Virus record (IMG/VR): IMGVR_UViG_2537561933_000012 | DNA: 26,813 nucleotides | Reading direction: 5' to 3' (one strand) | From: a virus | Taxonomy: Duplodnaviria > Heunggongvirae > Uroviricota > Caudoviricetes | Shown here: positions 9,462 to 9,809 of the stretch, in pieces | Layout: every line of letters starts with the position of its first letter | Numbering within the stretch: the stretch's first letter is position 1 | Made by a program: the position numbers and the translations under genes | The notes under the pieces: model-generated | The model's database searches: none | What the model saw: the letters and a program-made list of their open reading frames with translations, nothing else | Told to the model about the DNA's origin: nothing

Positions 9462-9536
9462 TGGAGCGGGCAGCGGGAATCGAACCCGCATCATCAGCTT
9501 GGAAGGCTGAGGTAATAGCCATTATGCGATGCCCGC
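9462..9536 (-). tRNA. tRNA-Gly (anticodon UCC), phage-type, CCA encoded
   Basis: Hand-folded cloverleaf: acceptor GCGGGCA/TGCCCGC, anticodon loop CUUCCAA, T-loop TTCGATT; resembles recalled T4 tRNA-Gly. Confidence 0.65.
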
Positions 9537-9539
9537 ATA

Positions 9540-9615
9540 TGGTGCCGACTACCGGAATCGAACTGGTGACCTACTGATTACAAGTCAGTTGCTCTACCTA
9601 CTGAGCTAAGTCGGC
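9540..9615 (-). tRNA. tRNA-Thr (anticodon UGU), CCA encoded
   Basis: Acceptor GCCGACT/AGTCGGC, D-arm GCTCAGTAGGTAGAGC, anticodon loop CUUGUAA; one A-C mismatch in the T-stem. Confidence 0.6.
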
Positions 9616-9617
9616 AC

Positions 9618-9694
9618 TGGACCGCCACCGGGGACTCGAACCTCGCACACTCAACTTAAAGAGTTGACGCTCTTTCCTGATGAGCTAGTGGCGG
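9618..9694 (-). tRNA. tRNA of uncertain identity (anticodon positions read UUU, Lys-like, but loop is UCUUUAA with C at position 33)
   Basis: Acceptor CCGCCAC/GTGGCGG, T-loop TTCGAGT, CCA encoded; non-canonical anticodon loop and one A-C mismatch in the T-stem. Confidence 0.5.
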
Positions 9695-9695
9695 T

Positions 9696-9771
9696 TGGTG
9701 GCCCTTGCTGGATTTGAACCAGCGACCTGGCGATTATGAGTCGCTCGCTCTCACCACTGAGCTAAAGGGCC
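9696..9771 (-). tRNA. tRNA-Ile2 (anticodon CAU, ileX/ileZ-like)
   Basis: GGCCCTTTAGCTCAGTGGT...CTCATAA...GGTTCAAATCC...AAGGGCCACCA, close to recalled E. coli ileX. Confidence 0.8.
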
Positions 9772-9780
9772 GGGCGCAGG

Positions 9781-9809
9781 ATAATAACGTTACGAAATCA
9801 ATGTTGCAA
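9781..9809 (-). promoter_or_regulatory. Sigma70-like promoter for the tRNA array
   Basis: On minus strand: -35 TTGCAA (9809-9804), 17 nt spacer, -10 TATTAT (9786-9781), ~10 nt before the tRNA-Ile 5' end. Confidence 0.5.

Follow-up and report, generated by a model that had tools for sequence, protein, structure and literature searches.

A widespread Arg(UCU)-derived, nominal Lys(UUU) tRNA with C33 in a four-tRNA cassette of lambdoid Escherichia coli prophages

Introduction

How did a phage transfer RNA (tRNA) gene with a lysine anticodon come to carry a cytidine at position 33, and does its product still serve the phage? The question is raised by a 26,813-nucleotide (nt) stretch of DNA, IMG/VR record IMGVR_UViG_2537561933_000012 from a virus of the Caudoviricetes, which is called the window here at its full length. 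Four tRNA genes lie on its minus strand at 9462-9771, as found by both ARAGORN and Rfam RF00005, and all four score above the RF00005 gathering score of 29 bits. In coordinate order, the reverse of the order of transcription, they are:

9462..9536, minus strand: tRNA-Gly(UCC), a copy of glyT, which reads GGA/GGG (ARAGORN; Rfam 56.8 bits)
9540..9615, minus strand: tRNA-Thr(UGU), a copy of thrU, which reads ACA (ARAGORN; Rfam 73.8 bits)
9618..9694, minus strand: 'Lys'(UUU), an anticodon-shifted tRNA of the argN/Arg(UCU) family (ARAGORN; Rfam 43.8 bits)
9696..9771, minus strand: ileZ-type tRNA-Ile2 with the anticodon CAU (Rfam 72.5 bits; labelled Met by ARAGORN)

The genes are separated by spacers of 1, 2, and 3 nt and the CCA end is encoded in all four. 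RefSeq already annotates them as tRNA-Ile, tRNA-Lys, tRNA-Thr, and tRNA-Gly, and the cassette is of a common, already annotated kind in lambda-like E. coli prophages. What remains unusual is the second gene in the order of transcription, written here as the 'Lys' tRNA, a widespread phage tRNA whose anticodon has moved from Arg(UCU) to a nominal Lys(UUU) and whose position 33 is invariably C. A first-pass annotation of the window had described four closely packed tRNAs with spacers of 1-3 nt; ARAGORN and Rfam agree with this description and place the gene boundaries where it had placed them, not elsewhere. The statements made at the level of the array, on its identity, origin, position, and promoter, are close to certain.

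Origin of the 'Lys' tRNA

The anticodon arm of the 'Lys' tRNA consists of a UCAAC/GUUGA stem and the loop U32-C33-U34-U35-U36-A37-A38, with C33 at window position 9661 and the anticodon at 9660-9658. The UUU anticodon occupies positions 34-36 of a 7-nt loop over a 5-base-pair (bp) stem. The loop UCUUUAA with its C33 had been noticed in the first-pass annotation, and C33 is real in both the sequence and the Rfam alignment. The U33 of a canonical tRNA-Lys is missing here, and every UUU-type copy seen has C33. Descent from the host lysT family is likewise not supported, as the body belongs to the argN/Arg(UCU) family and its discriminator is U73 instead of the A73 that serves as an identity element for lysyl-tRNA synthetase. 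The earlier doubt about the decoding identity of this tRNA is borne out: it is a nominal Lys(UUU) on an Arg-family body.

The 'Lys' tRNA aligns over its full length with argN of Shiga toxin (Stx) phages, whose anticodon is UCG, and both have an A51·C63 mismatch and U73. T-stem A·C mismatches had been pointed out in two of the tRNAs. These are present but do not mark the genes as odd, since both are inherited: A51·C63 from the argN family, and A52·C62 of the Thr gene from the host, as the Thr copy is identical to thrU. Being native to thrU and the argN family, the mismatches were rejected as signs of a pseudogene.

Two scans of IMG/VR place the window's form among its relatives. In the first, the anticodon loop was left free, and the matches listed include at least 112 copies with the loop CCUUUAA, at least three with UCUUUAA (the form in the window), at least one with ACUUUAA, and at least seven with the argN loop CUUCGAA. 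The second had as its only anchors the last part of ileZ and the first part of the Thr gene, so that the middle gene was unbiased, and returned 127 arrays with 26 distinct middle genes. About 120 of these arrays are C33-UUU, while in three this slot is occupied by a tRNA with a canonical Arg(UCU) loop, which reads CUUCUAA in two (L140, L141) and UUUCUAA in one (L146). Outside the loop the window's 'Lys' tRNA is identical to the majority 'Lys' form, and L146 differs from it at four positions there, two of which make up a compensatory change of C4-G69 to U4-A69. Nine distinct family members support the cloverleaf, with 97.9% of cells paired and changes on both sides of four pairs; none of the slid controls shows such changes.

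Going by these loops, the simplest history begins with a tRNA-Arg(UCU) in the second slot, whose loop would then have changed from (U/C)UUCUAA to (U/C)CUUUAA through U33C and C35U. Single-step forms, with U33-UUU or C33-UCU on the 'Lys' body, were not found in IMG/VR, where the three hits are unrelated environmental tRNA-Lys genes, nor in Joint Genome Institute (JGI) metagenomes, in scans run without a positive control. In a scan of one genome per species, using an exact pattern on 185,579 species genomes, E. coli and Shigella flexneri were the only species with the family; for this pattern there was no spread outside E. coli/Shigella. E. coli ECMA0423 and S. flexneri SFBU1023 each carry an Arg(UCU) cassette and a C33 'Lys' cassette in different prophages (L152-L157), so the two forms coexist and could recombine. 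In the literature that could be searched there was no paper on a C33 Arg-to-Lys phage tRNA, and nothing of use on the ileZ/argN/argO genes, the tRNA genes of 933W, or PhiR47.

Neither a second copy nor an 82-nt argN-like 'tRNA-Val(aac)' is present in the window. Such a 'tRNA-Val(aac)' is called by ARAGORN in L012 and L023, ~646 nt downstream of tRNA-Gly. Its acceptor and T arms match the argN family and its anticodon arm is aberrant; it is another paralogue, degenerate or divergent.

Constraint on the 'Lys' tRNA

Nucleotide diversity (pi), taken from 60 arrays with fully homologous flanks, is 0.018 in the 'Lys' gene, 0.0006 in ileZ, 0.0096 in Thr, 0.0076 in Gly, and 0.016 in the non-coding downstream flank. 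Constraint is weakest in the 'Lys' gene. Of 123 'Lys' copies, 31 have C8 instead of the near-universal U8, a change seen in none of the neighbouring tRNAs, and a 'Lys' form widespread in enterohaemorrhagic E. coli (EHEC) and PPompW phages has a 1-nt deletion in the D-stem. The haplotypes with the D-stem deletion and with C8 fall below the Rfam gathering score; intact 'Lys' forms reach 43.8-44.4 bits and the Arg(UCU) siblings 53.5-56.4 bits. The annotation pipeline PGAP is similarly divided, with a tRNA-Lys annotated in 29 of 60 evenly spaced rows from the 782 positive genomes and nothing annotated in the other 31. The predicted minimum-energy fold is a cloverleaf for L146 and not for the C33 forms, although this is weak evidence because unmodified tRNAs often misfold in silico.

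The C33 substitution itself is expected to matter. U33 is the conserved U-turn residue of elongator tRNAs, and the known exceptions are eukaryotic initiators with C33 and the Candida tRNA-Ser(CAG) with G33 (PMC5041475). In vitro, U33C abolishes formation of N6-threonylcarbamoyladenosine at position 37 (t6A37) by E. coli TsaBCDE on tRNA-fMet (PMC8887486). In the 'Lys' tRNA, C33 would remove the U-turn uridine and block t6A37 formation by TsaBCDE, leaving at best a weak decoder, and two common 'Lys' lineages have decayed further. Judged by its sequence, the 'Lys' tRNA is on balance probably a marginally functional or non-functional passenger, which would have spread with a successful cassette and would decode weakly at best.

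Several observations weigh against this reading. The C33/UUU form occurs in 782 of 5426 complete E. coli genomes (~1 in 7), while the canonical Arg(UCU) sibling occurs in 16, which makes the C33/UUU form about 50 times commoner, and it is also kept in phages recovered as virions. Positions 33-38 are invariant in the ~120 copies among the matches listed, with three alleles at position 32, and the two loop changes are always found together. Variants with a damaged stem or an indel account for 13 of 123 'Lys' copies and 19 of 119 Gly copies. As this tally is not above that of Gly, the case for relaxed constraint rests on the diversity, the C8 haplotype, the scores, and the annotation. Taken together, these observations agree no less well with selection for the new loop than with hitchhiking.

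The remaining members and codon supply

The other three tRNAs are ordinary. Over the CAU tRNA and the 45 nt that precede it, the sequence is the same as in the ileZ region of Stx2 phage F349 and of PPompW phages. The ARAGORN label of tRNA-Met was therefore rejected, given the 100% identity to ileZ and the RefSeq annotation as tRNA-Ile, and the identity makes this gene the AUA-reading tRNA-Ile2 type. Like the rest of its known family, its CAU anticodon is presumably modified with lysidine.

The Thr tRNA is identical to K-12 thrU at 76 of 76 positions and the Gly tRNA to K-12 glyT at 74 of 75 (98.7%). The latter had been likened to the tRNA-Gly of T4 rather than that of the host, a candidate that was rejected as its identity to the T2/T4 type is only 82.7%. 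The one change in the Gly copy is U11C at 9526, which breaks the U11-A24 pair to give a C11·A24 mismatch and is common to ~17 IMG/VR copies. Ten other IMG/VR Gly copies have a compensatory change of C6-G67 to U6-A67, which suggests that structural selection continues to act on the Gly copy in phages. The host shares only the mature tRNA sequence, including CCA, with the Thr and Gly genes, without the host flanks or tyrU. The copies of thrU and glyT were possibly captured by repeated trimming or by copying from mature tRNA.

By eye, the thrU copy (CUG/CAG) and the glyT copy (CAG/CUG) both have the paired CNG motif and A37 that are linked to cleavage by P2 Old. glyT is not among the cleaved tRNAs listed in the P2 Old paper.

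The codons read by these tRNAs were compared between 37 host genes and the genes of the intact phage PhiR47_1, which has the same array, as counts per 1000 codons. ATA rises from 2.3 in the host to 7.6 in the phage (3.3x), AGA from 1.2 to 5.8 (4.8x), AGG from 0.6 to 4.3 (about 7x), ACA from 6.1 to 12.8 (2.1x), GGA from 6.4 to 12.8 (2.0x), and GGG from 9.8 to 17.6 (1.8x). The lysine codons hardly differ, with AAA at 35.7 and 37.2 (1.04x) and AAG at 12.3 and 15.4 (1.25x). This enrichment identifies the ancestral set of Ile2, Arg(UCU), Thr(UGU), and Gly(UCC) as a rare-codon kit for AUA/AGA/ACA/GGA. Three of the window's four tRNAs fit a rare-codon role, in which ileZ and the thrU and glyT copies would supply decoders for codons 2-3 times as common in phage genes as in those of the host. 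The 'Lys' form falls outside this role, and with its emergence the phage lost its decoder for AGA/AGG.

Relation to tRNA-targeting defences

Lysine codons show no enrichment in the phage, so a need for codon supply gives no reason for a tRNA-Lys. The UUU anticodon is targeted by PARIS, PrrC, and P2 Old, and UGU is targeted by PARIS and P2 Old. A doubtful but serious alternative to the passenger reading, drawn from motifs in the sequence, is that the C33/UUU tRNA works as a replacement tRNA-Lys immune to PARIS AriB, PrrC, and P2 Old. Its Arg body would remove the recognition sites, while C33 would adjoin the PrrC cut and block the t6A37 that PrrC requires. Phage tRNA-Lys genes are able to rescue phages from PARIS and PrrC, and the prevalence of the form over its Arg(UCU) sibling, its invariant loop among the matches listed, and the lack of intermediates in IMG/VR or JGI metagenomes would all be consistent with such a benefit.

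AriB needs U36-A-A-U39-C40|A41 and U39A alone abolishes cutting (PMC12409363). The 'Lys' tRNA of the window reads U36-A-A-G39-U40-U41, so that the AriB site is absent. However, almost any non-Lys body would lack it. P2 Old, the agent of P2-lambda interference, cuts anticodon stems with paired CNG motifs at 28-30 and 40-42, acting on tRNA-ThrU first and also on other CNG tRNAs (PMC12445682). At these positions argN has CAG/CUG and the 'Lys' tRNA has CAA/UUG. Both the AriB site and the paired CNG motif are absent from the 'Lys' tRNA and also from the Arg(UCU) siblings, and because the siblings already have the CNG-free stem it was not acquired together with the Lys anticodon. The Thr copy, being identical to thrU, retains both the AriB and the Old motifs, which further counts against evasion.

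PrrC cuts tRNA-Lys between 33 and 34 (PMC2275089) and is said to need the cyclic form of t6A37 (ct6A37; PMC12409363). In the 'Lys' tRNA the PrrC cut falls at C33, a base that should keep t6A37 from forming, going by the E. coli TsaBCDE result (PMC8887486). The position of the cut differs between papers, being given as 35/36 in one (PMC12409363) and 33/34 in another (PMC2275089), which matters for the effect of C33. The same features that might protect the tRNA should also weaken it, as C33, the loss of t6A37, U73, and A51·C63 are all expected to impair decoding and charging, and half of the genomic copies carry extra lesions. A more specific proposal is that Arg(UCU) was turned into a defence-proof tRNA-Lys by C35U, which would confer lysine identity on a body unrecognised by AriB and P2 Old, together with U33C, which would alter the base 5' of the PrrC cut and abolish the t6A37 that PrrC requires. 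On the present sequences this account is unlikely, slightly more so than immunity in general.

Protection might instead come from quantity. It has to be asked whether the whole cassette is mainly an anti-defence dosage device and less a means of codon supply, in which extra thrU and 'Lys' tRNA made from a strong promoter outrun depletion by P2 Old and PARIS; we regard this as rather improbable. PARIS acts above all on Thr(UGU) and Lys(UUU), and in P2-lambda interference P2 Old has ThrU as its main target. One way in which the T5 tRNA-Tyr reportedly counters retron-Eco7 is by being overproduced from a strong phage promoter (PMC11555353). Against this, the Thr copy is identical in sequence to the sensitive host tRNA, the tRNA-Lys of E. 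coli itself gives little rescue from PrrC170, and neither ileZ nor Gly is among the named targets. Furthermore, the sibling array carries Arg(UCU) in place of 'Lys', and codon enrichment fits all four ancestral members.

Alternative decoding

A displaced U-turn could give the 'Lys' tRNA an unusual decoding role, with its anticodon read one position later as UUA (an ochre suppressor) or one position earlier as CUU, with arginine inserted at lysine codons via A20, or with altered slippage at A-AAG frameshift sites such as the tail chaperone G/GT site. On the loop sequence this is very improbable. C33 does remove the U-turn nucleotide, for which U32 (the base in the window) or U34 could substitute, and A20, an identity element for arginyl-tRNA synthetase, is kept in the D-loop. 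The Candida tRNA-Ser(CAG) is another tRNA with a shifted identity and has G33 (PMC5041475). The 58 annotated genes of PhiR47_1 translate without internal stops. We are not aware of any tRNA in which the anticodon of a 7-nt loop is shifted.

For slippage, Gly(UCC) and Lys(UUU) are the tRNAs at the G GGA AAG slip site of lambda. The G gene of PhiR47_1 ends in CCG GAA AAG TCC TGA; its slip site differs from the lambda heptamer, and GGGAAAG is absent at the end of G. A role in the G/GT frameshift is only remotely conceivable. The passenger reading remains the preferred one for the 'Lys' tRNA.

Promoter and transcript

The array has its own promoter and is followed by a structured trailer. The features are:

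9804..9809, minus strand: -35 hexamer TTGCAA, kept as TTGCAA or TTGCAG in 131 of 146 related arrays
9781..9786, minus strand: -10 hexamer TATTAT, 17 nt from the -35 hexamer, at the same distance in 138 of 146 arrays
9772..9780, minus strand: G+C-rich stretch CCTGCGCCC between the -10 hexamer and the first tRNA, the commonest form (87 of 146 arrays)
9255..9461, minus strand: highly structured 3' trailer of the tRNA transcript, roughly 200 nt
9229..9254, minus strand: intrinsic-terminator-like hairpin GCCCGCTTTTGCGGGC with a T run, between the array and the holin gene

TTGCAA-17-TATTAT, proposed as a promoter in the first-pass annotation, is indeed the best sigma-70-like site within 8900-10100 and ends 9 nt before the mature 5' end of the first tRNA. 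Its hexamers are kept even where the spacer sequence differs, which is the pattern expected of a working promoter. The CCTGCGCCC stretch leaves a leader of a few nt before the first tRNA and, from its composition, may resemble the discriminators of stable-RNA promoters.

The stretch 9225-9461, which includes the terminator, has a predicted minimum free energy of -84.5 kcal/mol (z = -6.2 against shuffled sequences). Three long hairpins are predicted in the trailer, one of them from a 13-bp inverted repeat at 9332-9344 / 9388-9400. No Rfam family matches 9225-9461, and around the array the hits below threshold are at chance level only, such as isrK, whose 16.8 bits compare with a gathering score of 50. 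A 38-amino-acid (aa) open reading frame (ORF) at 9284-9400 on the minus strand overlaps the structured trailer.

Transcription would start a few nt before ileZ from the conserved sigma-70 promoter, and the possession of this promoter makes expression probable in lysogens too. Q-modified late transcription would probably also read through the array, although a terminator-like hairpin (9916-9896) would stand in the way of late transcripts that arrive from upstream. The transcript is predicted to run through the structured trailer and to end at GCCCGCTTTTGCGGGC and its T run (9254-9239) before the holin gene. RNase P would cut each 5' end and exonucleases would trim the 1-3 nt spacers after the encoded CCA.

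Genomic context

The sequence of the window occurs unchanged in E. coli strain 99-3165 (NZ_CP029981.1), where it is part of a defective lambdoid prophage adjoining potAB, with ydfA/B/C and DicF. Rfam finds a full DicF small RNA at 22006-22057 (68.6 bits) and an IS009 RNA at 41-244 (129.2 bits), which is consistent with a Qin/Kim-like defective prophage. On one side of the array is the Q antiterminator gene (11565-11921, PF06530) and on the other a P21-type holin gene (8954-9169, PF04971), which is followed by lysozyme and Rz genes. In PhiR47_1 (from ECOR13) the same array is located between Q and S, and it is also found in other phages recovered as virions. A PanA/PanT antitoxin-toxin pair is annotated at the left end of PhiR47_1 (L158), at 308-1352.

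Between the Q gene and the array lie:

10004-10915, plus strand: ORF of 303 aa, on the strand opposite to the array, no Pfam match
11165-11551, plus strand: ORF of 128 aa, likewise opposite, no Pfam match
9829-9939: ORF of 36 aa annotated as 'antiterminator' by RefSeq, no Pfam match, containing a terminator-like hairpin
9886..9916, minus strand: this terminator-like hairpin with a T run, ~90 nt upstream of the promoter

The two plus-strand ORFs may be a moron insertion, and from their position between Q and the array late transcripts would cross them antisense. Similarity to Stx/PPompW phages stops exactly at 9916. The 9829-9939 stretch has the look of a remnant, left from the downstream end of a further Q/tR' region, and not of a gene.

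Implications

If the 'Lys' tRNA works, it is an elongator tRNA that decodes without U33 and probably without t6A37. Were it to evade defence nucleases, counter-defence by phage tRNAs would extend from large lytic phages (T5, T4) to temperate lambdoid phages, and this would be the first tRNA-based counter-defence described in temperate coliphages. The lambdoid carriers include relatives of Stx phages, which are targets of P2 Old and of satellite-borne PARIS. If it is non-functional, a dead tRNA has hitchhiked to high frequency inside a successful phage module. The locus would then also carry a warning for annotation, as it is given as tRNA-Lys in some genomes and left unannotated in others, with its neighbour called Met or Ile depending on the tool.

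Comparison with known systems

The array of the window is a variant of the ileZ-argN-argO cluster of Stx phages, which was reportedly first described for phage 933W. In Stx2 phage F349 (AP012530.1) the cluster has the same place on the map, downstream of Q and before the late genes. It has an identical ileZ, both promoter hexamers are conserved at 100%, and its second tRNA, argN, is a homologue of the 'Lys' tRNA with A51·C63 and U73. The second and third members of the Stx-phage cluster are tRNA-Arg (UCG, UCU), whereas the second tRNA of the window reads UUU with C33. In the window, argO is replaced by the copies of thrU and glyT, and lysis genes follow instead of stx.

Closer still is the sibling cassette ileZ-Arg(UCU)-Thr(UGU)-Gly(UCC) of ECMA0423 and SFBU1023, which has the same slots, spacing, and Thr and Gly genes, and the same CAAC/GUUG anticodon stem. 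Its Arg(UCU) differs in having the canonical loop CUUCUAA with U33, in the repair of the mismatch to an A51-U63 pair, and in G73; its score is 56.4 bits versus 43.8 for the 'Lys' tRNA. This sibling is rare, being found in 16 genomes versus 782.

The host counterpart of the last two genes is the K-12 thrU-tyrU-glyT-thrT operon, located upstream of tufB, with which the array shares the mature Thr (76/76) and Gly (74/75) sequences. In the host operon ~200 nt including tyrU lie between thrU and glyT, compared with a spacer of 3 nt in the window, and the flanks, tyrU, and thrT are absent here. The T4 tRNA cluster also contains a tRNA-Gly(UCC), and T4 tRNA genes are tightly packed and processed from a common precursor. 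However, the type of phage, the position, and the members differ.

Among phage tRNAs with a role in counter-defence, the T5 tRNA-Lys(UUU), which neutralises PARIS, and the Old-resistant phage tRNA-Thr(UGU) resemble the 'Lys' tRNA in having a targeted anticodon and changes at 39-41. The T5 tRNA-Lys has been shown to be functional and resistant to cutting, whereas the 'Lys' tRNA is known from sequence, has C33, derives from a tRNA-Arg, and belongs to temperate phages. Unlike the Old-resistant tRNA-Thr(UGU), the Thr copy of the window is not a resistant variant.

For the missing U33, the comparable tRNAs are the initiator tRNA-Met of multicellular eukaryotes (C33) and the Candida tRNA-Ser(CAG) (G33) (PMC5041475, PMC8887486). 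In Candida, as in the 'Lys' tRNA, the loss of U33 accompanies a change of anticodon identity. These precedents are eukaryotic and one of them is an initiator, whereas the tRNA of the window is a phage tRNA of the elongator type in a host whose t6A enzyme rejects C33.

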